Source: Psammoneis japonica
Lineage: Eukaryota
Assembly (NCBI GenBank): GCA_008632985.1
Contig: QPGO01000282.1
Location: forward strand, 1 to 36,680
Direction of reading: 5' to 3'
DNA length: 36,680 bases
This document shows positions 7,742-34,954 of the stretch, in pieces. Numbering within the stretch: position 1 is the stretch's first letter; every line of letters begins with the position of its first letter. The notes beneath the pieces were generated by a model. The model searched no databases. It was not told where the DNA came from and saw only the letters and a program-made list of their open reading frames with translations. The translations under genes were made by a program, and so were the position numbers.

Positions 7742-8113
7742 NNNNNNNNNNNNNNNNNNNNNNNNNNNNNNNNNNNNNNNNNNNNNNNNNNNNNNNNNNN
7801 NNNNNNNNNNNNNNNNNNNNNNNNNNNNNNNNNNNNNNNNNNNNNNNNNNNNNNNNNNNNNNNNNNNNNNNNNNNNNNNNNNNNNNNNNNNNNNNNNNNN
7901 NNNNNNNNNNNNNNNNNNNNNNNNNNNNNNNNNNNNNNNNNNNNNNNNNNNNNNNNNNNNNNNNNNNNNNNNNNNNNNNNNNNNNNNNNNNNNNNNNNNN
8001 NNNNNNNNNNNNNNNNNNNNNNNNNNNNNNNNNNNNNNNNNNNNNNNNNNNNNNNNNNNNNNNNNNNNNNNNNNNNNNNNNNNNNNNNNNNNNNNNNNNN
8101 NNNNNNNNNNNNN
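7742..8113. other. Assembly gap
   Basis: Run of N. Confidence 1.
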
Positions 8114-9554
8114 CAAAGCTGTGTGAGCAAGAAGCAAAGTGCAGCACACAAGCACAAGGCTGCTGTGTGGTTCTCGTGAGTGGCGGTGGTGGCAGCACAT
8201 CAAAGCTCTTGTGCAAACTGCTGAGAGAAGCAATGTTGAATTGCACAAAACAGCAAGGCTGCATGTTTTCTGTAGAAAAACAGCAGCAAGTGCAGAAAGT
8301 GTGGCGGCACACTCTCAATGGAAAAGAGCAAGACAAAGCTCACAAAGCTGTGTGAGCAAGAAGCAAAGTGCAGCACACAAGCACAAGGCTGCTGCAGTGA
8401 AAAAACAAAGTCTGACAATGAGGTTCATGCCATGGAGAAAACATTTGGCATTGAGCAACCTGCTGAAGCTGATGGCCAAGGGCCAAGTTGAGGACTTGGA
8501 AGTGTTTGGTGTGACATGGTGTGAAGCCTGTGGGAAAGCAAGAAGCTTGTGCAGGCCCCCAGCTGAGGTTTGGGAACAAGGCTTGAAAGAAATCTCCACC
8601 CAAGGAATGAACATTTGCACCCAAGCACAGGAGCAGGGTCTGGGCAATTGAGTGGTGACAGAAACTCCAGTGTTGTGGAAATTGTGAGACTGTTCTGTGC
8701 AAGCTCAAGCATTTGGTGATGAATGGCTTCTGTGCCACTCCTTCATGCAATGAGATGTGCCAATTGTGAGGCAGTCAGCTGGGTCATGATTTGCCTGTGC
8801 AAAACTCCTGTGGATGACAGCAGGCTCACAAGGTGCTTCTGCATGATCAGCTGCACCTGTGGGCCAGCCTGCAGACACAGCATGTGCTGTGCAATTCAGT
8901 GTTTTCCACTGCACAGTGGCACAAGATTGTCGTTGTTCAAACCAGCTGGTGCTGCACAATTGTTCAGGTGAACAATTCTTGATGAACACCCACCCACTCC
9001 TCAATCTCATTGACTGGAGCTGCTGATGGCATGGTTGCCAACAATCTGGGCTTGTGCCCTGGTGCTTGCGGTGCTGCTGCTGGCACCAAGAACTTTGTCA
9101 TGTGCCAAAGAGTGCAAACACCTTTGAAACATGCATCAATCTGCACAGCTGCCACTGCATGCTGGGTTGACCCAAAGTCTGGTCAACCTCACCTGCTGCC
9201 AGCCCACAAGGCCATGTGCTTTGAGACCCAGATGAAAATTTGCTCTCATGCCTTGGCCAACTGTGCAGCTGCATTCTTCCCTGGTGCTCAACAAAAGTCA
9301 CAACCCTGCTGCAATCAGAGGGAGTTTTTCTGGCAATTGAATCTGACAAACCTGTGCAGGTGAACCCAGACAATCTTCCATGGCTGGAGCTGACATTGCT
9401 GCTGAAGTTGGAGCCCTTGTTGACACTTCTTTTGGACAAAAGGAGGGAGATGTCCAAAGTGAAGGTGGTGCGGTGGCACCCCAGAACAGATCAGGGAAGG
9501 CAAGAACCCAAATGTGGTTGGCTGTCAAAAGATCACACATCATTTGGGTGGAAG

Positions 9555-9885
9555 ACACTTTCTTCTTGACTGTGACATGGAGTCAAGAGCCTCCATCACA
9601 TCATGGGCAATGGCAAGAATTTCACAGCCAATGTGGAAATGGTGGAACAGACACAGGTGCATGCCAACATTGTGACAGCTTTGGTGCAAAACCTGAATGC
9701 TCGTGAAGTGCGGTTGATGAGATTGCAGCGCTGTTTGTCCAATGGATTCATCCTGTCAATTGCTGAGTGTGCTGATGCCATGGGCTTGAGCAAGAGCAGG
9801 GCGCAGCTTTTGGTTGGCGGCAAGATGGTTAAAGAAGTTGTGTGAGGCACACGATGCATCCAGTTTCCAAGAGCATCTCTTGATG
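9555..9885 (+). pseudogene. Sigma-70 factor C-terminal fragment (regions 3.2-4; probably nuclear-encoded plastid sigma), copy A
   Basis: IVTALVQNLNAREVRLMRLQRCLSNGFILSIAECADAMGLSKSRAQ.L..RWLKKLCEA fits region 4 (LxxRExxxxRLRYGL..G..RSxxExAxxMGLSxxRVxQ....LKKLR). Confidence 0.75.
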
Positions 9886-10664
9886 ATCGCCTAAACAGGA
9901 TGTACAATGCAGAAGCTAACGTGTCATTGGAACCAGAGTAGATGCATTGAGCTTGACCGTGCCTGAACTTTGCCTCTAATCCTGTCAGCACACAAATCGT
10001 CACCACCCCGACAGCACTGACATGGAGCTTGAGCGCCTTCTCTCCGTTCCCTGTCTGCTCATGGGGTTTGGTCGATTCCGACCACCAAACCATCTGTGCA
10101 ACAATTGGGTTTCTCTCGGGCTTTACAACCCCGCTGGTTGGAGAGCAGACGTGTGTCTCCAACAAAATTACAGTGGGTGTGACCGCATTTCCAGACCTTG
10201 ACAGGGAATGAGAGGAGCTCGGTCAAATGGGACGAAAAGCAACAGGTTGACGCATCCCCAGTGTGTCTGGGATGGCCAGTCCCTTCCAATTGAGACATGT
10301 GGTGTGCTGGTGCAGTGGTGGGGATTCCTTCGTGCCGTGCCTTGACCAGTTGTTCACCCTGCAACCACTGCAGATTTTCTCGATGCCTTTGACGCGTTTC
10401 TGTTTTGCTGGCAATTTTCGAAGCTCTCTGCCGTCGTCCGCATGGGTGAATGATGAAACGCAGTCACAATGAAGCGCAGTCATTCATTGGCATTTTGGCA
10501 TGCGCCAGGGCATCTGACCACAGTGATGTTAAAAATGACACACGGACACCGCACACATCTAGAGCCTCCTTCTCTAGTGCAAATCTCGTTCTGTGCATAC
10601 GAGCCATCACCACCACTCCGACACACTTCTTGATTTCCTGCCTCGGGCATTGTGTGTCTCCGAC

Positions 10665-11960
10665 CTGCATGCGTGCTCTCAGCAAACTCAACAGCAACAT
10701 CCCGTGCTTGGCATGCCTGAAACGAAGCTACCACCAACCCCCATGTGGCAACAACCAGCACAGATGCGCACCCTGCAAACGCGTCGGACTTGCAAATTCC
10801 TCCTGTTTCCACTGTCTTCCCAAACACGTCCACTTGGAGCATCTCACGCTCCCACGCCAAGGGAACTGTCCCCGTCCATATTGCGAGCGTCACCGCATCA
10901 ACAAGCAAGAGAGCGACCAACGGCGCCATTGGGTTTATGAAACATTTTGTTTGTCCGCCATGTCATGCTGAACTACGCAGAAAAGGCAAGAGCAAAACCA
11001 AGGATGAACAGCCAAGGTGTGCTTTGACATGCAAGGTCACAACCAGCTTTGCTCGCAATTCTGTCGTCAAAACTCAAAGGAACAATGGCGACCTTAAAGA
11101 CACACACAAGATTGCGCAACCAAAACATTGTATGAGCCCTGTCTTCACTTTATGCGGCAAAACACAGACGGCTGTTGTCATGCAGCACCGCATGTGAAAA
11201 GCAAGAAAATGGACTGTGACGCCTTGACGACTCTGCCCATTCTGTAGCGGGTGGTCCAGACCCCGAATGCAATAGAAAGAAGAATTATGATGGCGGAAAG
11301 GGTAAAGCCAAGGCCACGCAGCACCCCGTTCAGGCAGCTGTAATCCACCTGGACCTTTGGCAGAGGCGGATGCATGTTGGTTGTTCCGTCGCAGGAAACA
11401 CAGGGTCAAACTACGCCACGTTCCATCTCGAATGATGTCTGTCCGAACAGCTTCAAACATGACATTTTCGGTTTCTGGGTCTTTTCGTTCGACAAAGTTG
11501 AGCAACTGGTAATGCGCAGTGGTGAAATCACGAGACCCTGTCTTTGGGTCAACGACAACAGGACCCGCAGCACCCACAAAGCTTGCATTGATGATTTGCT
11601 TGTAATGGGAGACGCCGTCAAAGTAAGTGACGGTGTCTGATGCAGCACAAGCAGCCAATCCCATGGAGATTGTGGAACCACACAGAAAGATCCCCAGATC
11701 TGGAGACTTGAACATTCTTTTGACTGGAAGCTGATCTCCACGTGATCGGGATGGTTCTGGAGCTCTTGCATGCTCGAAACCAATGCATCTAGCGCACGAG
11801 TTCCTGGTGTCGCTGTCTGGAAAAAGAGCATGGAACTTGTTCCACGAGCCACTTGCAGGATGCAGGCTGTCTGAGAAAAATCCAGACACAGTCAGTTCCA
11901 GCAATCCCCTGGTGACAGTAAACCAAGGGTGTCAGGTGGTTTAGCTGAGGGAGAGATTCC
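10665..11960 (-). pseudogene. Class C (GABA-B-like) GPCR fragment: end of ectodomain plus TM1-TM5/6, copy A
   Basis: Across frames: GIAGTD(C)VWIF, GLAAC, FVGAAGPVVVDPKTGSR, PPLP..LRGLGFTL..VVKASQSIFL, IVPLSFDD..GCDLACQSTPWLFILGF..FSA*FSMTWR, WTGTVPLAWERE..DVFG..C, QA(C)QARDVAVEFAES; frameshifts and a stop. Confidence 0.85.
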
Positions 11961-12429
11961 GGGCCGTAAAACAGCAAAGTGTTGCCCATGATGGTGTTGT
12001 GTGTGGTGTGGTTGGCCGCCGCTGGTGCGTGCGAAACAGCGATCCACATCACAAAAAACATGTCTTTCAACAGCCCCACAATTAACAAAACTGACTGTCA
12101 TGCGCGTGTCAACGGAAAGCACGACACAGATGTGTTGCCTCACACAGACTTGTGGCGAAGTCGTCAGGAGCAAACGAGCAGAAACGAAAACACGCCGTGG
12201 CCATGACGATGAAGATTGCAGCGGTGTTCCGAGTTTGGAGTCGAGATGATTACTTGGATCAAACCCAGCACCGGTTTAAATTGTGTCAAAACCAACTTGC
12301 CACTTCGCGGACACTGTTCCCTGCACGCGAAAATCTGAGGTGCGCAAGCACGCACTTTCCCACGCACTTTCTTCGTCTCACAATCGCAGTTCTGGCAAGA
12401 AAGCAAAGCATCGCATCAACAACATCACC

Positions 12430-13666
12430 ATGTTGTACGCTTTCCTCTTCTTGAACGCTTTGTTTCTCATTGGTGACTGTGGCCGAGCCATCTCTTGCCT
12501 GCGCAGGGATCCTAAAGAGTTCCCGGTGGGCGCGCTGCTCTGCTTCGTCTTGTGTTGCTTGTTGAGGAACATCGACGTCTGGATCGTCGTCCGAACCTTT
12601 GTGGTTGCATTTCTCATCTGGCTCTGTGCGATCCTCACTACGGCATTGCCCAAGCAGACAAGGTGGAATTGTTCTGAATTTAACCAGCATCCCCACGTTC
12701 CTCGCAGCCACTTTGTGGAGGCGCAACGCAAGACGTGTCGTTGCGACGTCAATGAGCCATTTGCATCGTAAGTTTTTGTTGCTCTTGTTGTACTGCCTTT
12801 TATTATGACGCTTGTTTCTAACGTCACCTTCTTTCTTTGATGTTCCATTTCTTGCGTTCAGCTCTGCTGACGGCACTGGTTCCAACAGTGGAGTGGCTCA
12901 CGAGCCGTCTTCAAACTACAACCCCCCACCCTCCGTCGATTTTAAAGAAAAAGACAACGTCAAAGCTTCATCCCCCCAAGCCGGGCCTTCCAAAGTACCG
13001 CTGCAACGTCAAACCAGAAAAAGACAACGTCCAAGCTTCACCTGTCAAGCCGAGCCCTCCAAAGCACCAGTGCAGAGTCGGTGAGAGAGTTTTGCACACG
13101 AACGGAAAAATACCAACGACGTCGCTTCTGCCAAGATCATCAGCATTCACCGCGACGACAAAACTCCACACTACACCATCCTCTTCTCTAATGACAGAGA
13201 GAGGCAGACGGTTGAAAAGAATCTGTCGCCCATCCCAAAAACACCAACGTCAGAAAAAGACGACATCAAAGCATCGCCTCACAAGCCGAGCCCTCCAAAG
13301 CACCAGTGCAAAGTCGGCAAGAACGTCAAGCACACGAACAGCAATGCCAACGACGTCGCATCTGCCAAGATCATTGGCATTCACCTTGACGACAAAACTC
13401 CGCACTACACTGTCCTCTTCTCCAACGGCAGAGAGCGACAGACAGAAGAAAAGAATCTATCTCCCGCCCCAAAAAAACCGACGTCCAAGTGCGAGAAGGG
13501 CCAAGACGTGCATTGCTGCCGCAACAACACTCGTGCATTGGCCAAGATTCTCAGGGTGTACTTTGATGATGATCTCGTGGCGCATTACGACATCAAATGT
13601 ATGGATGGGAGCGAGAGGCAGACGATTGACAAGCACCTGGAGGAATGTCCGGCTCCCGAGTTGCAG
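12430..13666 (+). pseudogene. Two-exon gene for a membrane protein (2-3 hydrophobic helices) with three C-terminal Tudor/SH3-like repeats, copy A
   Basis: caccATG at 12430; intron 12768-12861 (GTAAGT..CTAAC..TTCAG) joins in frame; repeats (Y)KVGExVx(Y)...AKIIxxHxDDxxx(Y)YTxxFSxGRERQTxEKNL; inferred ancestral TAG at 13664 now reads CAG; homopolymer frameshifts. Confidence 0.8.
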
Positions 13667-14369
13667 GGAGTGCGACGAGGCTGAGTTTTTTGCTGTTGCG
13701 GGTGGAGAAGATCGTCTGTGATTGTACATCTTATTTTTCGTTCAGGCCTGCATTGTCGTGAAGACGTGTTGGGCAGAAATTGTTTCAGATGTCAGCTTGT
13801 GGTGCGCATTCACTTGTCATTTTGGCACTCGAGTTTAACTGCAGCAGCAAAGTTGGAAGAGGCTTTCCAGATCTCGCATTCAGGCACGCATTGTCAAGAC
13901 GACACATGTGAGTTGGCCGCCGTTTCGGAACTGGTTTTGTGTGCCGGCAGAAGAGAATGCAAGATCTAGTTTGCCTCTGAAAGCTAATGTTGAACAGCAG
14001 CAACACTTGTTCCAATGTTCAAGTCGAAAACCATTGCAGGACTGGCGGAATCGAATGAGAAAATGAGAAACAAACATTGGACGGGCTTTTTGCGTGCAAG
14101 GTAGAAGCTCACGGATTGTCAGGTTTAGCATGGCAGGCATGGGGCATGGGAGTGGGGCTGGGGCTCGAGAGGGATTAGTTGGCGCACTGCAGAGTGCCAG
14201 GCCTGCAGATCAAGATTGTGAAAACAAAACAAAAATTAGAAAATGCACCACAATCAGAACATCTCTTTCGCGCTTTTGAAAACTCTCTTTCACATCGTCC
14301 CACTTGCAACCATCTGCTGATGGTGCAAGTGAGGCAATTGAGACTGTCATTGAGTGCAAGGTCATTGGT

Positions 14370-15035
14370 TAAGAGCGTCTGCTTTGTCCAAAGATTACCA
14401 CACAGGTTGCGACCATCAGCATTGAGCATCTCATGCACCGCACGAATCCACCAGGCCCGTTTCAGGCTGGGTCGGCAATCTCAAGGGCGATCTCCATCAG
14501 AACATCAAGGATCTTTGCATCGTTCAGGACCCGACAAAGGAAAAAAAGCATCCCAAGTAGCTCGCGGCCAGTTGCAAATCATTTGGTGCCGAGGAGGACG
14601 CGTCCGTGAAGGTGTTGCTTGCATCGGATCGGGTGTCTGCACACCTCACTCGACCTTTGCCGACGCCTGTCCATTGGCGCCTTGTGCTGATGCTGTGGAC
14701 GACACAGGCTGTGCCTCAGAACGGCAAGACATGCGTGCAAGACTTGGTTGCCATTGCCGATGATGCCCGTCGTCTGTTGCGTGAGCGCACCAACGGCATG
14801 CTTTGCGTTCGTGGCAACCGGAGCTTGCCCAAACCTCTTCAGGACGCCCTTGTCAAGAGCTTTTCCGAAGCGAGCGAAGATCCATCTGAGATAGAAGCCG
14901 CGACTGCTGTTGTGGAAGATGTGTTTGTCCAAGGTCGTGCTCAGCAAGGGGTTTGGTTGAACACGGGCGCCGCATTAAAGCAAAATCGTGCCAGACTACC
15001 CACAACCCATGACGACAAAAAGAATGGCAATTGGA
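14370..15035 (+). pseudogene. Fragment of an unidentified protein-coding gene
   Basis: Protein-like reading across copies: GNLKGGLHQNIKDLRIVKDPTKDKKYPK..AFGYKSLGAEEDASVKVLL..PVHWRLVLML..VQDLVAIADDARRLLRER; no family recognised. Confidence 0.4.
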
Positions 15036-15039
15036 AAAT

Positions 15040-15920
15040 TCTTGACGGAAAAGAGGGTCGCAGACATTCTTTCTGTGTCTTCATGCGCCACAATTGTTTG
15101 GGGTGGAGGCGAACATGATGGCTTCTTGTCGCCATCTGTGCCGGTTTGTGGCTGCATCGGAGTTGAAGCAGTTTCCGACTTGGAAATAAAGTTTGCAAAG
15201 TGCTTGGATGATTTAGCACTGAACAAAAGACGAGCAGCGTGCAACAATAATGCACATGCGTCCGTTCAACAAAAAGCATTAAATAAAAAGAATGACACGC
15301 ACCCTTCGCCAAGCATGCTTGCTGTCTGGAATGGGATCAATTGTTTCACAAATTCGCCTCAGCTGATCGTTTTCACAACCGTGAGGTGCATGGACAATCC
15401 GAGAAACAGTTCTGCCGCCACGCGTCCCAAGGACCACATGTCAAAAGCGGAATCGCACGGCAGCCGTAGAGTGGAAGAACTTCCGGGCTGCGGTAAAACC
15501 GAAATTGAATGTAGCTGTGAGCCGTGTTTCCTTCACAGCAAGCCGAACCGAAAACAGTTGACTTGACATTGCTCGAATGAGACTGCTTCTCGGTCGAACA
15601 ATTGATCGCTGGCACAATTCCTTCACGCTGCCGTCCATTGTTTTCATGAGCAGCGGCCGAACCTTTGTCAAGGGCAACCTTCTGAACTGCCGCTGATTCA
15701 AAACCTCTTGTGTTCATCCCAACAATTCAAACACCAAGCAAAGGTGATTCTGATGCGGACTGTACGATTGCAGGTGCGCTGTCTTGCGGTTTTCGCTTTG
15801 ACGTTAATGGCCAAGAAATCCTTGTCTTGCTCAGCACCCAAAGACACCAATCTCCACAGCTGCTTGTTGTGTACAAGCTTGCCTGTTCTTCACCACTTTC
15901 AGGGCTACAAAGACTGCCAT
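15040..15920 (-). pseudogene. DYRK-family (YAK1-like) protein kinase fragment, copy A
   Basis: VALKVVKN..QAAVEI, HLCLVFELLG, QRQFRRLPL, FGSAC(C)EGNTAHSYIQFRFYRSPEVL, MWSLG.VAAELFLGL; intron with donor at 15302; HCDLKPEN region missing. Confidence 0.9.
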
Positions 15921-15984
15921 GACAAACAGGGAGCGAGTTGAGACACGCATGTGCCACTCCAGTGCGGCTCTTTAAGCCACAGAC

Positions 15985-16570
15985 GCACCTTTCCACCGCC
16001 TGGTGGACTGGTTCCCTGCGCAAGGCGTCTGCATGCTTTTCGTGCACCAACAAGCAATCAGGAGCCACGCGCTAATTTTTCATTGCAAAAACAGAAACAG
16101 AAATGAGTTCCACAGCAGCAATTCAAAATCAACAGGAACAGCATTTTCAAATTCCAAAACTCCATTTACATGGCCTTTGTCCCACATAGAAAGTTTTGCC
16201 CAATGATGCATTCCTCGGCTCAATCTTTAAAAGAGAGAAAAGAGCAGTTGGCAAGATTAATGCGTTGGGTAATTCCGCCACTTTCACGCGCAACATGCAG
16301 CATGCTCACCCTTCCAACTTCCAATGCGTTCCGATCCGGCAAACAAAATGGTTCATCATTCTTTTCCAAGAGCATCTCTGTTTCTTCCACGCCGCCTTGA
16401 ACAACTGTTTGACAAAGAAGAGGGAAAACAGGAAGCGTCAGAAGAACGAGCTCTTCCACAAGACATGCAATGCACACACATGAGCATCTGCCAGGGGGTG
16501 CATGCACACACCTTGCAATGCTCCCGGATCAAAACAGTGTGTCACCAATTCTTGCAGGAGCACCAAGAGT
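15985..16570 (-). pseudogene. Aldehyde dehydrogenase (ALDH3-like) fragment with introns, copy A
   Basis: LLQELVTH(C)FDPGALQ/VVQGGVEETEMLLEK (joined by an intron with donor at 16511), ILFAGSERIG (FTGS motif), RII.GKTF..GQ, VAPD(C/Y)LLVHEKHADAL. Confidence 0.82.
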
Positions 16571-16584
16571 GCCCGACCGCACTG

Positions 16585-16893
16585 CGTCTCTCCTCCCAGA
16601 GTCGGTCCGACATCTTTCAGCTCTTGAATCTCCACCACACTTTTGTGCATGCGAGGAAAGGCGCTTCTGGCAATGACAGCAGCACCGGAAGCACCAAAAA
16701 CCAAATGAAAAAAGGACGTCCGCGAAGCTTCCAAAGCCTCGGAAACGATTGGGGCAGCGGAGGTTCCATCCGGAATTGCTTCAAGCCGCGACTTTGTGAA
16801 TGCAATTCGTGGGTCTCCATTGTCACTCGGACAAAAGGAGTGAACCATGCAGGTCACGATCAGCACAACAAGAAATGTGAGAAGGCACCTCAT
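16585..16893 (-). pseudogene. N-terminal fragment of a signal-peptide (possibly plastid-targeted) hypothetical protein, copy A; copy B at ~35550-35859
   Basis: caccATG followed by MR(C)LLTFLVVLIVTCMVHSF, a signal-like peptide; IWFFGASGAAVIARSAFPRM(H)..IQELKDVGPTLGGET. Confidence 0.55.
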
Positions 16894-17869
16894 GGTGAAC
16901 GGGACGGGAGCGCCAGTGCAGCACCGACAAAAAAAAAAGAAAAAAGTGAGCAAGAAAAATGAGGATGACGTCAGGAAAGCATGCGTGCTGCACACACTGT
17001 GCAGACGCACGACGCACGGGCGGGTGGCTGTTTTTCGGACGACAAAACAGCACAAGAATCCAACTTGAAACCAAACAACAGAGAAAATGCCCATGACTTG
17101 TTTCAATTTTGTCAAAATGTCCGCCAAGTTTCACCATCTTCCTTTCATGACACCCACTGCAACAGCTTCTCAAACCACATGATGGTTTGTCACACTCTTG
17201 TGTTTGTTCCTGTTTGGGGCCGACTCTCTGCAGGACCCTCGGCAGGCCTTGGTTTCTCAAGTTTCTCAACGTCTTATCCCAGACGACACATTGGTTCTCT
17301 GGCTCTGCCTGGTTTGACCTTCATGACTTCATTGAGTTGTTTGACAGTCAACACATGCCAGCAGCATTTCAAGGTGCTCGTGACCATGTCTGCTGTGGTT
17401 GTGTTGCAGCACAAATTCACATGTCAGGGTCAGGCCACGGCCAATCAAAAATCTAAACCTCAAATGACAGAAGAAGCAAGATGCATCCTCCAAGAACATC
17501 CAGCACACCATTCAAACATGCAGTGCTCACCTGACAGTTGGCATCTGGCCTTTGCCCTTCTTGCCACATTCTGAGGCCCCGCAGCCCTTCAAACCATGTT
17601 TTTTCTCCGCACAGCCCATGGCGCGCACTTAAACACAAACACAGGAGCACCTGCCATCCATCATCCAGCATCCTCTGTGCTCTTGCCAGTTTCCAACAAG
17701 GTGTCAGAGACACTCTTGAAGAAGCCAGGGAAGTTCTTGGTCTTTTCCACTGGCTTGCTCATTCTGAGCAGACATTTGGGAGCCTTCTGGCAGCGCTGGG
17801 TTTGCTGGTGCATTGCAAAGCAACCTCTTTCAGCACAGTTTCCAGCAGCAATCTGTGCATGAGTGCTGT

Positions 17870-19493: not shown

Positions 19494-19769
19494 TGGCAGG
19501 ATTTGAACAGGATTTAGGTGCGCGCGAAGCATCGCGCGCTGTTTAGTTTACCGCGCACAGTTTTGTGTGCTTTAGTTCCGCGCGTTCACGCGCGATGCAG
19601 TTTGCTTTCGAGCCACAAGGCTCACAAGAATGATGACAGTAGCCTGATTGCACCGACTTGCACGTCTTTCGGCTCCTGTGACGGTCTCTGAACGGAGACT
19701 CATCTGCCATTTAGACAGCAGTGAGGAGTTGTTGTTTGAATTCTTGCCATTTGCCTTCAATTTGCAACA
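19494..19769 (+). repeat. 5' LTR
   Basis: TGGCAGGATTTGAACAGG...TTTGCAACA; aligns without gaps to 26295-26570 (offset 6801). Confidence 0.96.
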
Positions 19770-19786
19770 GATTAACAGTCTTGCTC
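19770..19786 (+). other. Primer-binding site, complementary to a tRNA-Asn(GUU)-like anticodon arm (half-tRNA type)
   Basis: GATTAACAGTCTTGCTC directly follows the LTR CA; its reverse complement GAGCAAGA-CTGTTAA-TC contains the Asn anticodon loop CUGUUAA. Confidence 0.7.
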
Positions 19787-20717
19787 ATTGTCAACCCATT
19801 GAGCAACCGCCATCGTCGTCGTTGATTTACCAACGACACCACTTCAATTCTACGTGGACCTCCGCATGTGTTCTACATACATCGGCAAGTCTACGTGCAT
19901 TCAACACCAGGGCATTGGCAGGAAGTTAACGTCACCGTCAAGTCTCCTCACCGCTGGACATCTGGATTGATCATGCTGCCTTTGATCGCTGAAGACTTGT
20001 GTTCAACGGTCACATCCAAGTCTGTCCTTGATCAACATCCCTTGATGTGCCTGTTCCTCGGTTGACGGTCAAGAACCCTGCACATTCAAGGATCTTAGTC
20101 GCTGAAGACATGTGTGCACATGTGTGTGTGCATGTCTTCACGGCCAAGAACCTTCATCCACTCTTCGGACTGCGGTTTTGCTGCCACTCTGCAAGCACAC
20201 CGAGTCCACTGCACCTGATCCACCCCGGACTGCTGGTGCTCCACAGTTCTGCTGGGTCCACGAGGACGACTGTGAGAGCAAGCAGCCATGATTACAGCCT
20301 GCGTTGGGGCGAGGGTGTTTTTCCCGCGTTTGTTCGTTCGTCCACAGCGCCTGACGCCTGCGTCAACTGGCCAGCCTGATTGGGAAATCCAACCGACATA
20401 AAACAAGAACGGTTCGGGGGTCTTGTCCACCTCTGGTCAGCTTACCTGCAGGGGTTTACAACCCGCTACTCCGCTCGTAAGCAACCCAAAGCACCACCAG
20501 CTGCGGGTTCGGACGTGCCGGCACAACTCTACGGACCGGATGGGAAGTTTAGCACTCAACAACGAACGGGATAACAAAGCCAGGCGACTTCTGATTTTAA
20601 GACAGTTCAAGATTTCAAGTCAAGTCCATTTCAAGTCAAGTCTGTTCTCACCCAAGTTTCGAGTCTACCTTCGCTTCCCAACCAGAATTGATTGTCCTGA
20701 CACCACTTTTGTCTGCC

Positions 20718-23700
20718 ATGGTTCTCACTCGTCAGCAACAAACCGATGGTTTCGAGCACGTTGTTGGAACCGTGCTTGCCCAAGGTGCTGGGAGTCCTCT
20801 TCGTTTGGCTTTGGCCCAAGACGGCACGGACTCGTGTCAGGAACTGTTCACGTTCATACCGTCCCAAATCGACTCGCTTGAGTGCGACAACGGCACTGGT
20901 GTAATCCCCTTGCCCCGTGGTCATAAGAACATGTTAGCAGCACCAGTCAGTCTGTACATTGTCAAAGCACACAAAGGTCTTGACGTTGCCAACGACTCCT
21001 CTTTGTTCGCGCATGACAAGTTCCTTGCCTGCCGCCTCAGCCCCGACTGCATGTCTTCTGTGTCCATCGGCAGCTCACCCCTTGCACCTCCACATGTCAC
21101 CAACCCGACCAAGGCACGCGACCCGGTGAGAGACTTCAAGCGAGGCATCAAGCGTGATCCCACCGCTTTCACGGCTCTCAAATCCGACAAGCAGTGGCAC
21201 ACTTGGCACACCTCACTTGTGGCACAAGCCCGTGCCCAAGACGTCGAGTGCATTCTAGACTCGTCGTACAAACCGACCAGCCCCGAAGACAAACTGCTCT
21301 TTGCTGAACAGCAAAAGCACATGTTCGCCATCTTCGAACGCATCCTTCTCACCGACAAGGGCAAGGCTCTCATTCGCGAAAATGTGGGGTCTTCTGACGC
21401 ACAGACCGTCCACCGCTCCTTGTCTGAGTGCGCGCTTGCCTCCACCCATGCATCTGTCGAGTCCTCCACCCTGCTCACGCACCTCACCACCGCACGTCTT
21501 GGTGATGGCACTTGGAAAGGTCCGACCCACGGGTTCATCCTTCATTGGCAAGATCAGTTGCGCAAGTGCGAGGCACTCATCCCCGCCAGTGACCACTTCT
21601 CTGAAGGACAGAAGCGCGTCATGCTCGAGAATGCCGTGCACCCTGTCGAGGAACTCCGTGCTGTCAAGAACCAAGCTGATCAGCATCGCACGCAGAGTGG
21701 CAAGAGCCTCACATGCGATCAACACTGTGGCTTGCTCCTCTCCGCGGCAGCTCAGTGCGACAGCACGTTTCAACCCAAGACGACACCCAGAGCTCCCCGA
21801 TGCGCCATACACGCACACGACGTCTGCTCCGAGGAACCGTCCGAAGATGTGTTCTACGACATTGACAGTGACGTTGACGTCCTTCAAGCCAATGCTGCCT
21901 GCACCCGCGGTCCCAGCCTCACCGGTGTCCAATGGAGACGTCTCCCTCCCGACCACCAACGGCTCTGGGATTCGTTGCCCGATTCCTCCAAGGCGATCAT
22001 CCTTGAGCATTCTCGTCCGCCTCCCCGCAACCCGCGAGCCAGCAACTGCCATGAGTCTGTTACGGCCAACCTTCACGACCAACACCTTGGGAGTGACGGT
22101 GATGTCAACTTGTCCAACACGACTCCTGCTGACTCTGGTGACTCCGCTCCACATGTGGACGCCACTTCGGACAATCCCATCCTGGCGCACCTCACCAAGC
22201 GCAAGCCACTGCCACCCGGTGATCTGCAACGTCTGTTGTCTCCTAACCAAGCCCCCAATGCCAGTCGACCGGGGCCATCCGCCGCTTCCTCTACCCTGCC
22301 AGCTTCTGCAGATGACACAGAACTTAACGGCCGCACTTGCCGCCGCGTCAACAACCACAATGTCATTCACTCTGCCTCTGCTCATCGCTCCACACGCACT
22401 GGCGCTCTAGTCGATCGTGGGGCCAACGGCGGCATTGCTGGCGACGACGTTTGCGTCATTGCACGCACCTCTTGCCAAGTCGACGTTCAGGGCATTGACG
22501 ATCATCAATTGGTGGACATCCCCATTGTCACCGCTGGTGCCGTTGTTGAGACCCAGCGTGGTCCCGTCATCGCCATCCTCCATCAGCACGCATGCACGGG
22601 CAAGGGCAAGACCATCCATTCCTGCGGCCAGCTCGAATGGCACAAACAGGATGTCAACGATCGCTCTGTCAAGGTGCCCAACGGCTTGCAACGCATTGCC
22701 ACTCCTGATGGCTGTGTCATCCCCATTGACATCAAGGCTGGCCTGCCTCATGTTGCCATGCGACCTTGCACTGACGCCGAATGGGACACCCTGCCCCATG
22801 TCATCCTCACCGGTGATGACACATGGGACCCTTCCGTCCTCGATCACTCTGTCACTGATGACGACCAGTGGCACGACGCGATCTCTGACCTGCAGGACGA
22901 TCCCACTGCCAACCTATTTGACGAATGCGGCAACTGCCGTCATCGTGTCGTTGTCAATGAGACCATCATGTCCACTTCCTTGTCTGCCGATCACGCGTCC
23001 GCCCTCGATGATCACCTCATTCCGAACAACGACGTGTTCTACGAGTGTCATCTGCGCACTGTACAGCCCAAGGACCCCCCCTTCGAGTCTCTTCGGCCTT
23101 GCTTTGGCTTCCCACCTGCCGATGCGGTCCGTCGTACTTTTGACTGCACCACGCAGTGCGCCCGCATGCCCGCCGGTACACACCTTCGCAAGGCCTGCAA
23201 ATCACCCAACCCCGCCCTCAATGTGCACCGCCGCAACGAGCCTGTCGCCACTGACACCGTTTGTGCCGACACCCCGGCCGTCGACTCTGGTTGCACCAGC
23301 GCCCAACTGTTTGTTGGCACCGAGTCTACCGTCACTGACGTCTGCGGCACTGAGACGGACAAAGAGTTTGTCAACACACTCGAGGATCAGATCCGTGAAC
23401 GTGGTGCCCCATCCAAACTCATTGGCGACCGTGCTCAAGTTGAGATCAGCAACAAAGTGCTCGGGATCCCACGCGCCCTCTTCATCTCCAGCTGGCAAAG
23501 TGAGCCTCACCAGCAACACCAAAACTTTGCCGAGCGTCGACACCAGACCGTGAAGCGCATGGCAAACACTGTCATGGATCGTTTTGGTTCGCCCGCCCAC
23601 ACATGGCTGCTGGCGCTCATGTGCGTGTGCTTCGTGCTCAACCATGCAGCGTCCCCACGTCTCCACTGGCGCACGCCCCTCGAGACTCTCACTGGCTCCA

Positions 23701-26294
23701 CCCCGGACATCAGCCCATTGCTTCGCTTTCACTGGTGGGAACCCATGTGCTTCCACCTCGATGACTCCGATTGGCCGTCCGAATCCCGTGAGTTGCGTGG
23801 ACGCTTCGTTGGCATTGCTGAGCACGTCGGCCACCAAATGACCTTCAAAAATTCTATCTGACGAGACTCAGAAGATCCTCTGCCGGTCCAACGTCCGCTC
23901 CGCCACCCCCGATCCTGCCGTTCGAAACCTGCGTCTTGATCCTCCTGATGGGGAGCCACCTGAACCCATCATCAAATCTCGCCATGACGACAACCCCGTC
24001 GATTCTCCTGATGGGGAGATCAGGACACCCAAGATTCCAGTTTTTTGATCCGCAAGACATCATTGGACGTGCCTTCCTCATGCAGCCACAAGAGGACGGA
24101 CAACGCCACAGAGCTCGCATCGTCAAGGCCGTCGAAGACCACGAATGGAAAGTGAACGGCAATCCCGAGCTCACTAAGTTCGTCTGCTCTGTCAACAATG
24201 ACGAATACGAGGAAGTCCTTGCCTGCAATGACATCATGAATCACATTGAGCAAGAAGACGAAGACACCACTGTTTGGAAATTTCGACGCATCGTGTCACA
24301 CGAAGGACCTCTGAAGCCTCACGACCCAACCTGGAAAGGCTCCAGCTACAACATCATGCTTGAATGGGAAAGTGGGGAGATCACGTCCGAGCCTCTTGCC
24401 ATCATCGCCAAGGACGACCCCGTCACCTGTGCCATCCATGCACGAGAGAACGGACTCCTCGACACGGATGGCTGGAAGCGGTTCCGCACCATCGCGAGGC
24501 GCCAAAAGAAGCTGTTTCGCATGGCCAACCAAGCCAAGCTTCGCTCCTTCCGCACTGCACCTCGCTGCAAGCATGGGTGCGAAGTTCCCCAGAACTACAA
24601 ACACGCCATGTCACCAGACAAACGCAACGGCAACCGCAAGTGGGGAGACGCAACTAATCTCGAGATGGACCAACTCGACGAATACGAAGTCTTCCATGAC
24701 TGCGGGCCCTTCAAGTCTTCCACTCCTCCTGCGGGACACAAGAAGATCCGAGTGCACCTGGTGTGCGACGTGAAACACGACGGTCGCCACAAGGCACGAC
24801 TCGTAGCCGACGGGCACCTCACAGACGTACCTGTCGACAGTGTCTGCTCCGGAGTAGTCTCCCTCCGTGGCCTTCGGCTGATGATTTTCCTGGCCGAACT
24901 CAACGAGTTGGAGACATGGGCCACCGACATTGGCAATGCCCACCTTGAAGCCACCACCAAGGAGAAGCTTTACATTGCAGCTGGACCCGAGTTCGGCAAA
25001 CTCGAAGGACACATCCTTGTCATCCACAAGGCACTGCATGGACTGCGCAGCTCCGGTCTCCGCTGGCACGAGCGCTTCGCCGACTGCCTGCGAGCTGAAG
25101 GCTTCTTCCCCTGCCGCGCCGAACCCGACATTTGGATGCGCAGGAATGGCGACCACTGTGAACACATTGCCGTTTATGTGGATGACCTCGCCATTGCCAT
25201 GAAGGACCCTCAATCTTTCGTCGACACTCTCACGGAAAAGCACAAGTTCAAGCTCAAGGGCACGGGACCCATTGAGTTCCATCTGGGTTGCGACTTTTCC
25301 CGGGAACCCGACGGAACCTTGTGCCTGTCTCCGCGCAAGCACATCGAGCGCATGGTCGACAGCTGTGCCCGACTGTTTGGGGAGAAACCTGCCACCAACG
25401 CCCTGTCACCTCTAGAGAAGGGTGACCACCCCGAACTGGACACTTCCGAACTGCTGGGACCTGATGGCATTCGCAAGTTCCAGTCTCTTGTTGGTTCACT
25501 CCAATGGGCAGCATCCCTTGGTCGAATTGACATCACCACGGCCGTCATGTCACTCTCTAGCTTCTGAGCTGCGCCCCGTCAAGGCCACTTGGATCGTGCC
25601 AAACGCGTCTGTGGGCACCTCTCCAAGATGCGACACGGTGCTCTCCGCGTTCACACGGAAGAGCCCGACCATTCGGATCTCCCTGCTCCGGCCTGTGAAT
25701 GGATGCATTCCATGTGTGGTGAAGCAGAAGAGATGATCCCAAAGGACGCTCCACCGCCCCTTGGCAAGTTCGTCACTGCCACCCACTACGTCGATGCAAA
25801 CTTGTGCCATTGCATGCTCACCGGACGCTCTGTCATGGGAATGCTCCACTTCCTCAACAAATTCCCGGCTGATTGGTTCTCTAAGAAACAAGCCACCGTG
25901 GAGACTGCGACCCACGGGTCTGAATTTGTTGCCGCAAGGACTTGTGTTGAGCAGATCATCGACCTGCGCATCACCCTGCGCTGCCTTGGCGTCCTGATCC
26001 GCAACGTTAGTTACATGTTCGGTGACAACAAGTCGGTTGTAGACAGTGCCACCATCCCACACTCCAAGTTACACAAGCGACACACCGCACTGTCGTTCCA
26101 CCGTGTGCATGAGGCAATTGCCTCTGGTCACCTTGAGCTCCACTTCATCGAAGGCTCCCGCAACCCTGCTGACATTCTCAGCAAGCATTGGGGTTGCTCC
26201 CAAATCTGGGACCTTCTCCGCCCCCTCATGTTCTGGAACTTCATTCCATCCGAAGTCGAATCTGTTTCTGTGGCTCCTCAAGCAAACTGGGGAG
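20718..26294 (+). pseudogene. gag-pol polyprotein (Gag, aspartic protease, integrase, RT, RNase H), disrupted
   Basis: Gag FKRGIKRDP; PR ALVDRGANGG; IN ATDT...GDRAQVE...QNFAERR; RT HKARLVADGH, DIGNA, YVDDL (25175); RH YVDANL, GSEF, GDNKSV, NPADILSK. Frameshifts near 23850 and ~24010, in-frame TGA at 25565 (probably from CGA), and pervasive Tyr->Cys/His. Confidence 0.95.
26289..26294 (+). other. Polypurine tract (short)
   Basis: GGGGAG directly upstream of the 3' LTR TG. Confidence 0.7.
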
Positions 26295-26570
26295 TGACAG
26301 GATTTGAACAGGATTTGGGTGCGCGCGAAGTGTCGCGCGCTGTTTAGTTCACCGCGCACAGTTTTGTGTGCTTTAGTTCCGCGCGTTCACGCGCAATGTG
26401 GTTTGCTTTCGAGCCACAAGGCTCACAAGAATGATGACAGCAGCCCGATCACACCGACTCACACGTCTTTCGGCTCCTGTGACGGTCTCTGAACGGAGAC
26501 TCATCTGCCATTTAGACAGCAGTGAGGAGCCATTGTTTGAATTCTTGCCATTTGCCTTCAATTTGCAACA
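26295..26570 (+). repeat. 3' LTR
   Basis: TGACAGGATTTGAACAGG...TTTGCAACA; preceded by a purine run and followed by the TSD CCCCT. Confidence 0.96.
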
Positions 26571-27734
26571 CCCCTCTTGGCAAACACACATTTTTGCACT
26601 TGCACAGGGCAACATTCCTGCAACCTGCACAGGAATGGGGTCCAACCACTCAGGCAGTGACATGTGAGTTCAGTGCCATGGAAGTTGCAAGACCACTCTG
26701 TGCACAACTCACATGCATGGGGCAGCAAAACATGCTGCAGAGCTTGAGTCCACATTTGACACTGTGCATCTTCTGCAAAGCCACCCCTTTGTGCAAGATG
26801 TGCCAATTGCAGGATGAACAGCTGGGTCATGACTTTCCTGCATGAAACTCATGTGTGCAACAACAGGCTTGCAAGGTGCTTCTGCATTGTGATCAGCTGA
26901 TCCTGCGGGCCAGTCTGCAGACATGCAGAATGGCAGCCTTGCTGCATGCAATCCAGGGTTGCTTGCTGAACAGTGGCTCAAGATCATTGCTGTCCAAACC
27001 AGCAGCTGGCACCATGCAATGTTTTCAGGCAAACTGTTCTTGGTGAACACTCATCCACTCCATTTTGTCAGCTGGAGCTGCTGACAGCATGGCTGCCAAG
27101 AACAACCTGGGCTTGTGCCCTGATGCCTGTGGTGCTGCTGGCACCAATTTTGTCACATCCAAGCAGTGCAAACCTTTGAAAGATGTGCCAATCTGCACAG
27201 CTGCTGCTGTGTGGGTTGACCCAAAGTTGGGTCAACCTCACCTGCTGCCAGCCCGCAAGCAGGCCATGCACTTTGAGGGCTGGATGAAAAAATTGCTCTT
27301 GTGCCCCAGCAGCTGCACCCAAGTGGGTTGGAACTGTTCATGGCACACCTTGCCAGTTTGACAGGAGCAGGAATGCTCCTCACCCAGCTGTGCTCTTCCC
27401 TGGTGCTCAACAAAAGTCACAAACCTGCTGAAACCAGAGGTCACAACCCTGCTGCAACCAGAGGGAGTTTTGCTGGCATTTGAATCTGACAAATCTGCTC
27501 AGGTGGATCTGAACAACCTGCCATGAGTGGAGCTGATGTTGCTGCTAAAGTGGGGGGGCTTGTCGATGCTTCTTTTGGACAAAAGGAGGGAGATGTCCAA
27601 AGCAAAGGTGGCATGGAATGAGGAGGACAATGGTGGCACCCCAGAACAGATCAGGGAAGGCAAGAACCCAAATGCGGCAGGCTGTCAGAAGCTCAAATGT
27701 CATTTGGGTGGAAGAAATCATGGTCGCCAACTTC

Positions 27735-28070
27735 AAAATGAAGCAAGCCTTGTCACTTGACTGTGACACAGAGTCAGGGGCCTCCATCATGGGCAATGAC
27801 AAGAACCTCACAGCCGATGTGGAAATGATGGAACAGACACAGGTGCAAGCTGATGTTGTGGTGGCTTTGGCACAAAACCTGGATGCTCGTGAAGTGCGGT
27901 CAATGAGGTTGCAACACTGTTTGTCTGATGGATTTATCCGGTCAATTGCTGAGTGTGCCGGTGCCATGGGCTTGGGCGAGTTGTGCACAGCACTCAGTTG
28001 GCGGCAAGATGTTTGAAGAAGTTGTGCCATGAGGCACACGTTGCATCCAGTTTCCAAGAGCATCTCTTGA
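27735..28070 (+). pseudogene. Sigma-70 factor C-terminal fragment, copy B
   Basis: KQALSLD...ADVVVALAQNLDAREVRSMRLQHCLSDGFIRSIAECAGAMGL. Confidence 0.75.
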
Positions 28071-28939
28071 TGATTGCCCAGACAGGATGTGCAACACAGA
28101 AGCCAACATGACATCAGAGCCAGAATGGATGCACTGAGCTTGACCGTGCCTGCTGAACTTCACCTCCAATCCTGTCAGCACACACATCGTCTCCTCCCCA
28201 ACAGCACTGGGGTTTGGTTGATTCCAACCACCAAACCATCTGTGCAATGACCAGGCTTCTCATGGGCTTTACAACCCCACTGGTTGGAGAGTGGATGTGT
28301 GTTTCCAACAAAATTGAAGCAGGTGTGACCACATTTCCAGACACTGACGGGAAATGAGAGGAGCTTGGTCAAATCGGATGAGAAAAGCAACAGGTCAACA
28401 CATCCCCATCACACCTGGGATGGCCAGTCCCTTCCAATTGAGGCATGTGGTGGGAATCCCTTCATGCCGTGCCTCAACCAATTCATCCGCAACCACTGCA
28501 GATTTTCTTGACTCCACTGAATCGCTTCTTTTTTGCTGACAATTTCGAAGCTCTGTGCCGTCATCCATTTGGGTGAATGACAAAGCGCACTGCTCATTCA
28601 TTGACATTTCAGCCTGTGCTGCGGCATCTAACCACAGCGAAGTTCCCAACACATGGACACCACAAACATCCAGTGCCTCCTTCTCCAGCAAATCTTGTTC
28701 TCCTCTGCATGCGAGCCACTCCCGCTGCCCCAACACCCTTCTTGATTTCCTGCCTTGGATGTTGCACATCTCCTGATTTCCAACAACAAACAATGTCTCT
28801 TCAAACTGATCAGTTTGCTTGTGCAAGAAAGCATGCAGTGAGTTGGTTTAAGACAAGCCTGATGTCACCGAGCAATGCCAAGACAGAAGCACGCCACCGA
28901 ACAAATGAAATTTTCTCATGCACTTGCTGATTCCAACGC

Positions 28940-29550
28940 CAGACAGAATGCTTCACAGTGGCAACACTTTGAAAGTTGCTCCAGTCAGAAATGTAAAAAT
29001 GAATCACCAAGTCATTTGTGGACAGGAGTGCCAGTTGATTTGAGTCCCTGTGCTTCATTGGCATCTCATCACACTTTCTTGCAACCAAAGACTTCAGCTC
29101 TCCTGCCTCTTCTAAGGATCTCTGCTTGGCGCATTTGGCAAGATGCACAAATCCAACGTTCCAAGCAATGAAGACAGACTCTGGGCAAGGTGCAATCAAA
29201 GTTGCATCTCCTCCAAGATTGGAAAATGTGCAGCAACATTCAGCTCCTTTGGCACTGCATTCTTTGTTCGTTTCCTCAACATTTTGATCTAAACTGCTCT
29301 CAATGTGATGGTTCTCGACCGTGTCGTCACCGCTGCTTGTTGTGTCCCAGCCACCATCCCTCCTGCAGCCTGCCCAATTGTTGCTTTCAGCATCCCAATT
29401 GATTTCCATCCAAAATCTTTGTGCACATCATCACTGCAACTGGCAGATCCAAACAGATGTTCAGAAAAGGTTTCGGGGTCAGCCTCAGCTGCACTCTCTA
29501 GATCAAGAGACGGGCCCAGGGCAAACTCAGCTGGAATGAATCTGCACTTC
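28940..29550 (-). pseudogene. Fragment resembling DUF6940-type proteins (family name from memory), copy B only
   Basis: EF..ADPETFSEHL..TFSNLGGDATLIAPCP..HLA..LST..HF*LEQLSK(CC)H(C), compared with the recalled motif FxNLGGDAxLxxP..HLA..LST..LHxRLDxxPKYY. Confidence 0.5.
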
Positions 29551-29569
29551 CTCTGCACTTGAAAATTGA

Positions 29570-30380
29570 AAGCAAGAAAATGGGCTGTGATGCCTTGATG
29601 ACTCTGCCCATTCTGCAGCGGATGGCTCAGACCCCAAATGCAATGGAAAGAAGAATCAATGTGGCCGAAAGGGCAAATCCAAAGCCACGCAGTGCCCTGT
29701 TCAGGTGCTGCAGCTGCAATCCACCTGGACCTTTGAGTGGAGGCAGAGACACCTCATGTTGGTTGTTCCATTGCAAGAGACACGGGGTCAAACTGCACCA
29801 CGTTCCCATCTCGAAAAATGTCTGTCCGAACAGCACCAAAGGCGACATTTCCGGTTTCTGGGTCTTTTCGTTCCACAAAGTTGAGCAACCGGTGCAATGC
29901 ACAGTGGTCAAATCATGAGACCCTGTCATTGGGTCAATGACAGCAGAATCCGAAGAATCCACAAAGCTTTGCATTGACAGCATGCTCGCAATGGGAGACG
30001 CCGTCAAAGCAAGTGAGACGTCGCGCAAGCAGCCAGCCCATGGAGATTGTGGAACCATGTGCAGAAAGATCCCCAGATCTGGAGACTTGAATGTTCTTTT
30101 GACTGGAAGCTGATCTCCACGTGATCTGGATGGTTCTGAAGCTCTTGCATGCTCGAAACCATTGCACGCAGATCGCAAGAGTTCCTGGCATCCTGGCTCT
30201 GGACAAAGAGCACGGAACTTGTGTGTTCTACGAGCCACCTTGCACAGGACGCAGGTCATCTGAGAAAAAACCAGACACAGTCATTTCCAGTGATCCCCTG
30301 GCAATTGTAAAGCAAGGGTGTCAGGTGGTTTTGCTGAGAGAGAGATTCCGGACCGTAGCAGCAAAGTGTTGACCATGGTC
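29570..30380 (-). pseudogene. Class C GPCR fragment, copy B (truncated at TM2)
   Basis: Aligns to ~11195-11985; more degraded than copy A. Confidence 0.8.
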
Positions 30381-30827
30381 TTGTGTGGTGCGGTTGGGCG
30401 CTGGCAGGTGGTGCGGCACAGCACGTGCGAAAAAGCGATCAATCGAACAGAAGAAAAAATTTTGTCCATCACCAGCCCCACAACAAACAAAAATGACTGT
30501 CATGTGCGTGTCAACGGAAAGCACGACACAGATTTGTTGCCTTGCAAACTTATGGCGAAGTCGCATCAGGAGCAAACGAGCAAAGAAAAAGCGGCTGTGG
30601 CCATGACGATGAAGATTGTAGCGGCATTCCGAGTTTGGATTCGAGATGATTACTTGGATCAAACCCAGCACCGGTTTAAATTGTGTCAAAACCAACTTGC
30701 CACTTCGCGGACACGATTCCCTACACGCGAAAATCTGAAATGCGCAAGCACGCACTTTCCCACGCACTCTTCGTCCCACAATCGCAGTTCTGGCAAGAAA
30801 GTAAAGTGTCGCATCAACAATGTCACC

Positions 30828-34885: not shown

Positions 34886-34954
34886 AAGACAAGCAGGGAG
34901 CGAGTTGAGATGCGCATGTGCCACTCTAGCACGGCTCTTTGAGCCATGAACGTA

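Follow-up and report, generated by a model that had tools for sequence, protein, structure and literature searches.

We analyzed a 36,680-nt stretch of Psammoneis japonica DNA (GenBank assembly GCA_008632985.1, contig QPGO01000282.1, positions 1 to 36,680 of the forward strand), referred to below as the window. It contains two copies, A and B, of a chimeric gene fragment that joins an aldehyde dehydrogenase (ALDH)-like part to a part resembling DYRK/YAK1-type kinases. The paired copies in the window carry the signature of a mutator that destroys the dinucleotide TA and leaves TG or CA. Its specificity for TA, the direction of the change, its action after integration and its independence between copies are shown, as far as comparison of sequences can show them. 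An earlier note on this DNA had flagged three splice donors in the fragment that read GTG in copy A and GCA in copy B. All of these hexamers and their coordinates are correct when read on the minus strand. We infer that the three donors quite probably descend from GTA, arguing from the two copies rather than from a reading of the parental locus.

The two copies of the fragment are 92.8% identical across 2,054 columns in a self-comparison of the window. They differ at 134 of 2,035 aligned bases, and 102 of these mismatches are transitions. TG in one copy faces CA in the other at 24 of 2,034 doublet positions (1.2%), which accounts for 48 mismatches. These reciprocal doublets occupy positions +2/+3 in three of the four recognized donors (Table 1). 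Under random placement, the binomial probability of this is about 7e-6. The fourth donor, that of intron 3, is a single-step case, with GTG in copy A (15988) and GTA in copy B (34955). TA is also retained in copy B at a TAC (35023-35021) that is TGC in copy A (16056-16054). In splice donors, T at +2 is near-invariant and A at +3 is the consensus. A functional donor requires T at +2, so if these sites are donors of genes that once worked, the ancestor of each was GTA or GTG and never GCG.

The same class of doublet dominates the larger duplicated blocks, A and B, in which the fragment lies. In 5.5 kb of well-aligned block sequence, 67 TG/CA doublets were counted, versus six for the next most common doublet with both bases substituted. 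The neighboring piece of the blocks (11198-14696 vs 29569-33095) is 89.3% identical, and older-looking pieces are 76-83% identical. The two directions of the doublets are interleaved, 12 vs 12 in the focal pair and 19 vs 24 in the neighboring pair. We looked for runs of TG or of CA, as a processive event on one strand would leave, and found none in either well-aligned pair. The interleaving without runs indicates that the doublets are separate, independent events.

The remaining site classes of the focal pair constrain the origin of the doublets. TA is shared by both copies at 14 sites and is involved in 15 single-step differences. The corresponding numbers for CG are 89 and 14, and TG or CA is shared at 308 doublets. 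Outside pyrimidine-purine (YR) doublets, transitions are found at 25 of 1,107 sites (2.3%). Homogeneous CpG decay predicts 0.3 reciprocal doublets. A two-step route from the 308 shared doublets at the 2.3% transition rate predicts about 3.5. Since 24 were seen and both predictions are small, about 20 of the 24 (~84%) are left to reciprocal hits on ancestral TA.

The composition of the window agrees with a loss of TA. The observed/expected (O/E) ratio is 0.12 for TA, 0.60 for CG, 1.55 for CA and 1.63 for TG, and TA makes up 265 of 35,709 dinucleotides (0.74%). In 1-kb bins, rho for TA is at most 0.31 in all 37, and rho for CpA+TpG, calculated by a formula of our own, is at least 1.52 in 20 of 37. 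The TA ratio is 0.16 for the copia element and falls to 0.04 in 2300-7100. Stretches that lack a second copy inside the window are equally poor in TA (17.2-20.6 kb, O/E 0.14). The CG ratio is more variable, 0.74-1.01 across 12-17 kb and the body of the copia element and 0.08-0.2 in 3-10, 17-19 and 27-28 kb. In the focal region it is 0.74-0.86, versus 0.10-0.20 for TA. Elsewhere, in 3000-10000, 17000-19000 and 27000-30000, rho is 0.00-0.09 for TA and 0.08-0.39 for CG, and that for CA+TG reaches 1.6-2.0. A slower process that removes CpG seems to follow the loss of TA in the oldest parts.

Depletion of TA depends on its flanks. The O/E ratio is lowest for ATA/TAT (0.05), followed by CTA/TAG (0.13), GTA/TAC (0.14) and TTA/TAA (0.18), whereas the four NCG contexts are uniform (0.53-0.64). 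Most of the 265 TAs left in the window accordingly stand in TTA/TAA contexts. At the reciprocal doublets (54 sites), the 5' flank is A in 0.26, C in 0.19, G in 0.44 and T in 0.11. At surviving TA/TA sites (35 sites), it is A in 0.07 and T in 0.39, and the flanks of CG/CG sites are even. The reciprocal doublets are thus poor in 5' T and the surviving TA sites rich in it, which agrees with an origin of the doublets from TA.

The direction of the change can be read from a Ty1/copia element that lies between the two blocks. Its homologs number 1,696 at E <= 1e-10, and among the best 120 of these the identity is 55-72%. We aligned 30 homologs to the integrase end, 60 to the reverse transcriptase frame and 92 to the RNase H frame, and a column was called conserved when at least 70% of the homologs agree. 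Tyr is conserved in 28 columns. The element keeps it in six and has Cys (TGY) in ten, His (CAY) in nine, Trp (TGG) in one and Phe in two. Conserved Tyr is therefore replaced in 22 of 28 columns, with 19 codons now CAY or TGY, and other conserved residues are changed in 46 of 490 columns. The near-equal numbers of Cys and His indicate that TA changed to TG and to CA, with known direction. Arg is conserved in 38 columns; the element retains it in 33, and changes of the CpG type number three (two His, one Gln). Judged from these codons, CpG decay in the element is little.

The long terminal repeats (LTRs) of the element serve as a clock, as the two LTRs of a pair are identical at integration. The pair (276 bp, 93.8% identical) has 17 mismatches, of which 15 are inside YR doublets. 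Ten form five TG/CA doublets, three set TA against TG or CA, and two set CG against TG or CA; the other two are elsewhere. CpG decay predicts about 0.03 TG/CA doublets here (19 CG/CG sites, two single-step), and two-step change from 41 shared TG/CA doublets predicts about 0.3. The LTRs differ from each other, reciprocal doublets included, which indicates that the mutator works after integration and on each copy separately.

Table 1. Donor sites, duplicated sequences and control element in the window
Feature	Positions	Strand	Remarks
Intron 4 donor, copy A: GTGCGT	15297..15302	-	DYRK/YAK1-like fragment; 84-nt intron 15219-15302
Intron 4 donor, copy B: GCACGT	34259..34264	-	
Intron 1 donor, copy A: GTGTGT	16506..16511	-	ALDH-like fragment; intron 16405-16511, 107 nt
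Intron 1 donor, copy B: GCATGT	35473..35478	-	
Intron 2 donor, copy A: GTGAGC	16304..16309	-	Intron 16225-16309, 85 nt
Intron 2 donor, copy B: GCAAGC	35272..35277	-	
Intron 3 donor, copy A: GTGCGT	15983..15988	-	Intron 15914-15988; outside the three donors of the earlier note
Intron 3 donor, copy B: GTACGT	34950..34955	-	TA retained
Focal copy A	14870..16909	-	Chimeric frameshifted ALDH-like and DYRK-like gene fragment, four introns
Focal copy B	33828..35875	-	Duplicate of 14870..16909
Block A, whole duplicated block	8170..17200		76-93% identical to block B, piecewise
Block B, whole duplicated block	26796..36160		Partner of block A
Ty1/copia element between blocks	19494..26570	+	LTRs 19494-19769 and 26295-26570; polarity and clock control
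Copia open frames	20601-23861, 23822-25567, 25568-26347	+	1,086, 581 and 259 aa

Evidence on the introns came from contigs of one public sample (runs X1 and X2) aligned to 14700-17200, and it is independent of the gene labels. A search of sequencing runs for this stretch listed one DNA run and no RNA run. The comparison covers 40 of 198 rows of differing letters and 12 of 77 loose ends. At intron 1, an X2 contig joins 16404 to 16512 and skips exactly 107 bases, and the acceptor AG is at 16406-16405. At intron 2, the X2 contig has 152 letters between 16070 and 16318, where the window has 247; this is close, though not equal, to the 162 expected without the 85-nt intron. At intron 3, three related genomic X1 contigs continue past the same exon end as GTATGT, and an X2 contig runs on into different, exon-like sequence. 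Homology with other copies ends at 15909-15912, adjoining the predicted acceptor of this intron. X2 behaves like a spliced transcript or a processed copy. Within these contig alignments, introns 1 and 3 are shown to be introns. The basis for intron 4 is its GT..AG ends (AG at 15220-15219), a pyrimidine tract and continuity of the frame only. The X2 contig has 370 letters over it, versus 332 expected if spliced and 416 if unspliced. As the copies keep their introns, they are duplicates made at the DNA level.

The gene labels given earlier stand in part. A frame at 15373-15726 on the minus strand matches DYRK2 (E 3e-5, frame residues 47-90, spanning the DFG..YIQSRFYR region), and the exon 5' of intron 4 is this DYRK2-matching one. 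Two Tyr residues of DYRK2 face His (CAC, 15519-15517) and Cys (TGT, 15537-15535) in the fragment. The DYRK/YAK1 label is thus borne out, with the frame not intact. The kinase motifs are spread over three frames in both copies, so the DYRK-like fragment was already dead at duplication. It is a pseudogene fragment. The other part, made up of the upstream exons, looks ALDH3-type only through the motifs VAPDY.. and GGVEET..LL, a label confirmed by none of the databases searched. Searches of Pfam, the PDB, the protein collection and the Atlas returned no aldehyde dehydrogenase, and in the Atlas nothing usable matched.

The individual searches were mostly negative. Pfam had nothing for the DYRK-like fragment. 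It gave no family for 12 frames of the window, and eight of nine in-frame exon pieces had no match in it. The one match, of an exon piece to DUF6303 (E 0.075), was put down to chance. In the PDB, three ALDH-like pieces had no match and a fourth gave one unrelated chain at E 1. The protein collection yielded 134 candidates for the DYRK frame, none at E <= 0.001, and 625 for the ALDH-like frame, none at E <= 10. Rfam families and tRNAs numbered zero, and the dinoflagellate spliced-leader motif had no matches. A 25-base exon string of a parent-like contig had no matches in a metagenome scan.

These results are best explained by TpA-specific hypermutation of a silent, repeat-rich window. The A of TpA would be changed to G on either strand, and TG and CA would both be end states. 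A block of about 9 kb, carrying the dead chimeric DYRK/YAK1-type kinase and ALDH-like fragments, would have been duplicated as DNA together with its introns. After duplication, most susceptible TAs were probably hit independently in the two copies, on either strand at random. Half of the sites hit in both copies would then show TG facing CA. The GTA donors were presumably among the targets. Three would have become GTG in copy A and GCA in copy B, and the fourth GTG in copy A with GTA kept in copy B. The chemistry may be adenine deamination of DNA, which is proposed in a preprint on Bigelowiella natans (Mettrop et al., bioRxiv 10.64898/2026.01.13.699255).

The rates can be estimated from the pairs. 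A rough back-calculation puts the TA content at block duplication near normal, about 4% of dinucleotides, versus about 1% now. Each copy would since have lost about 85-95% of its susceptible TAs, within a time in which the LTR pair gained only two other mismatches. Expressed parent-like copies in the read data are rich in TA, with about 15 TA in about 320 non-overlapping loose-end letters versus 0.7% in the window, and the loose ends of more distant X1 contigs have ordinary TA content. If q is the chance of a hit at a susceptible TA (0.85-0.95, from the LTR and A/B pairs), a GTG/GCA pair arises from GTA at about q²/2, or roughly 0.3-0.45. Reaching GCA in copy B from GTG requires a background G->A change followed by a TA hit, about 1% per site. 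Three reciprocal hits and one single hit on four donors are what GTA ancestry predicts.

Most claims of the earlier note survived this analysis. It had proposed GTA ancestors and argued against CpG decay. The first is probable in view of the excess of doublets over the CpG and two-step predictions. The second is upheld by the 0.3 of 24 doublets predicted, the Arg columns kept and the exclusion of GCG as a donor. That each copy was hit independently is borne out by the reciprocal doublets of the LTRs and the interleaved directions in the focal pair. It had further claimed that the mutator reaches intron-containing duplicates that never passed through reverse transcription. The retained introns and the joint of 16404 to 16512 agree with this. 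Changes after integration in the LTRs, together with the retained introns, do not fit RNA editing fixed by reverse transcription and point to chromosomal DNA as the substrate. Only the proposed damage to splicing has no functional weight. The copies share their frameshifts and the chimeric layout and were already dead, and a GTG donor is still canonical.

Several observations weigh against an origin from TA. Copy A has TG at all four donors and copy B has CA at the three that changed; the chance of this is about 1 in 32, which is not significant. A homogeneous TA model fitted to the 14 TA/TA and 15 single-step sites predicts just about two reciprocal doublets. As this model fails, susceptible and resistant classes of TA, or a burst, must be assumed; the different flanks of hit and surviving TA support such classes. 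In sets of three or four copies, reciprocal pairs with an unmutated outgroup have CG in it twice and TA twice, and the two CG cases are columns 152 and 177 of a 235-bp tandem repeat. Parsimony on the multi-copy sets counts 14 losses of CG versus two of TA. It also counts eight apparent gains of CG, six apparent gains of TA and ten direct changes between TG and CA. Because the outgroup copies were mutated themselves, apparent gains are expected and the loss counts are biased. Sites with three states in these sets are CA/CG/TG six times and CA/TA/TG once, and CpG loss in 13-14.7 kb is real. Single sites point the same way. In the conserved DQL motif, copy A keeps CAG as the codon for Gln (15364) and copy B has TGG, and at 15848 and 15884 a related X2 contig appears to have the state of copy A in the 40 of 198 rows covered. 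These sites suggest that some reciprocal doublets are two-step changes within one lineage. In the same rows, a related X2 contig appears to read TA at 15835-15836. Our confidence in the GTA ancestors is lowered mainly by the slender basis of the DYRK intron and by the reliance on the two copies in place of the parental donors.

One alternative is that one or more of the three are no true donors and are just reciprocal doublets that happen to follow a G, in which case the argument from the donor consensus falls away. The missing database support for the ALDH label would allow this, as would the basis of the DYRK intron in its ends and frame continuity and an X2 length that fits neither expectation. 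However, the joint in the X2 contig fits intron 1 to the base, and the homology between copies stops beside the predicted acceptor of intron 3. Doublets would also fall on three of four donor positions by chance only at the very low probability given above, and about 84% of the focal doublets keep their TA origin without any argument from donors. We consider this alternative unlikely.

A second alternative accepts the donors and takes GTG as the ancestral state. Copy A would have kept it, and copy B alone would have changed in two steps, from G to A (giving GTA) and then by the mutator to GCA. G at +3 is common in donors, and double changes specific to one lineage seem to occur, as at 15848, 15884 and the DQL codon. 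The GTACGT of copy B at intron 3 could be read as the intermediate. This route is expected to yield only about 3.5 sites among the 308 doublets, about 1% each, which makes three of four donors very unlikely; reciprocal hits on GTA would occur at about 30-45% per site by comparison. Furthermore, the related genomic copy at intron 3 reads GTATGT. A GTG ancestor is improbable on these numbers.

CpG decay could produce the same end states. In this case, the ancestral donors would be GCGCGT, GCGTGT and GCGAGC, and deamination of methyl-cytosine on opposite strands would have given TG in copy A and CA in copy B. TG facing CA is indeed the classical product of two independent CpG decays. The low CG ratios in parts of the window, the two reciprocal pairs of the 235-bp repeat with CG in both outgroup copies and the excess of CA/CG/TG among three-state sites favor it. 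But the focal pair conserves CG at 89 sites versus 14 single-step changes, which is why so small a fraction of its doublets is predicted, and it keeps most of its CG while TA is nearly gone. The copia element has lost few of its conserved Arg codons. NCG is evenly depleted in all contexts, whereas the reciprocal doublets avoid a 5' T. In addition, functional donors cannot have been GCG at all three introns. CpG decay is therefore a very unlikely source of the three donors.

An artefact of sequencing or assembly, with a modified base miscalled as TG or CA according to read strand, is hardly credible: the assembly does have N gaps (1591-2186, 7742-8113) and the one DNA run found contains only 45% of sampled 31-mers of the stretch, but the copies are also set apart by indels and 57 further mismatches, X1 contigs carry both states as linked doublets (15780/15781 in four of 12 contigs; 16991/16992), and the change of Tyr to His or Cys is visible against independent homologs.

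A full-text literature search for a TpA to TpG/CpA signature returned one match, the B. natans preprint (Mettrop et al., bioRxiv 10.64898/2026.01.13.699255). In its mutation-accumulation lines, 231 of 302 new mutations were in two integrated viral regions, and 230 of these 231 were A->G or T->C, all on TpA. The rate was about 6e-7 in the viral regions versus 3.5e-10 elsewhere. The genome contains 124 clusters depleted in TpA and enriched in CpA+TpG, the cut-offs being at most 0.43 for rho_TpA and at least 1.52 for rho_CpA+TpG. TpA-depleted genes are enriched for reverse transcriptase and DDE domains, and the authors suggest that an ADAT2-like adenosine deaminase is responsible.

The window resembles that system, as described there, in several respects. 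Changes are confined to TpA and give TpG or CpA, and TpA is depleted regionally with enrichment of CpA and TpG, rho for TpA staying at or below 0.31 in every bin of the window. Sequences encoding reverse transcriptase are among the targets. The rate in B. natans is orders of magnitude (about 1000 times) above background, with activity in some lines only; on rate the window gives at most an indirect indication, the five reciprocal double hits of its LTR pair versus two mismatches outside YR doublets. The two differ in other respects. The evidence from the window is historical, from paired copies and homologs, whereas the B. natans mutations were measured. The B. natans process is aimed at foreign DNA (virus, transposon). 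The hit targets in the window are the copia element and also the DYRK-like and ALDH-like fragments, which are of cellular origin, bear introns and lie in a multi-copy block, in contrast to the single-copy region of a nucleocytoplasmic large DNA virus (NCLDV) in B. natans. Depletion is far deeper in the window, where TA makes up 0.7% of dinucleotides versus 3.3% in the NCLDV region. The window further differs by its preference for certain flanks, with ATA/TAT the hottest and TTA/TAA the coldest, and by a loss of CpG that runs alongside at a slower pace.

Other systems are less similar. Fungal repeat-induced point mutation (RIP) changes C to T at CpA and makes TpA. As in RIP, transitions at one dinucleotide riddle repeated or foreign DNA in the window, each copy independently. 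Unlike RIP, they destroy TpA and make CpA and TpG. Duplication is the trigger in RIP. Here, both copies were hit after duplication, and stretches that are single within the window are equally TA-poor. It is conceivable, though doubtful, that duplication or copy number sets off the mutator, which would then be a non-fungal counterpart of RIP directed at adenine. The back-calculated TA content at duplication, the later loss of susceptible TAs from each copy and the TA-rich parent-like copies would go with such a trigger. Decay of CpG by deamination of 5-methylcytosine shares the end products TG and CA and the reciprocal signature between duplicates, but here the source is TA and most focal CG is kept. 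In the focal pair, the TG/CA differences do not trace back to CG, and elsewhere they do so in part (two polarized cases, rho_CG 0.08-0.2). Hyperediting by A-to-I enzymes of the ADAR type and APOBEC editing of retroelements resemble the process in the window in A-to-G change, preference for 5' U/T and a role against repeats or viruses. The substrate of those systems is RNA, or cDNA as it is being reverse-transcribed, whereas here it is chromosomal DNA.

The phenomenon is real and striking, but its kind is already in print, reported once so far, in the 2026 preprint, for viral insertions in B. natans. What the window adds is a nearly saturated signature on a retrotransposon as well as on fragments of cellular genes that bear introns. 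Natural paired clocks are available in duplicates and LTR pairs, in which reciprocal TG/CA doublets count double hits. The preference of ATA/TAT over TTA/TAA is a constraint that any candidate deaminase must reproduce. The three donors have no functional bearing, since they lie in gene fragments that had died before. The most useful new points are the evidence from paired copies that DNA other than viral is hit close to saturation and in each copy independently, and the question of duplication itself as a trigger.

The window also holds a warning for annotation, as dead sequence depleted in TA keeps very long open frames and its Tyr becomes His or Cys. Over the 36.7 kb and both strands, we counted 51 frames that run 170 aa or more from stop to stop. 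Many overlap antisense, and they are rich in Cys, His and Trp; some cross the N gaps. The long frames result from the loss of TA, which leaves TGA as almost the sole stop. A TA that becomes TG or CA never yields an in-frame stop, and TAA and TAG are lost in this way, which makes an open frame in this DNA uninformative about function.

The duplicated blocks may belong to a larger family. X1 contigs related to 14700-17200 number 421, with a likeness of 80-100% over 2.5 kb, and their summed depth on this region is 200-1,800 versus about 96 for the perfectly matching contig. The family perhaps has 5-20 copies. Both blocks contain a 235-bp tandem duplication (13015-13485 and 31413-31882). Its units are 80-85% alike within a block and 91-92% alike between blocks, and the duplication lies inside a long open frame in which a peptide motif recurs. 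Block B alone has an extra local duplication (32556-33085 vs 33117-33833), in which 32556-32964 and 33427-33833 are 92.4% identical and have five TG/CA doublets in 407 bp. At the left end of the window, 4-1422 forms a third copy of block B's right end (35903-36678), with 89-90% identity. It has just two TG/CA doublets in 465 bp, yet diverges by 11.6% outside YR doublets, as though this copy arose when no more TA was left to lose.

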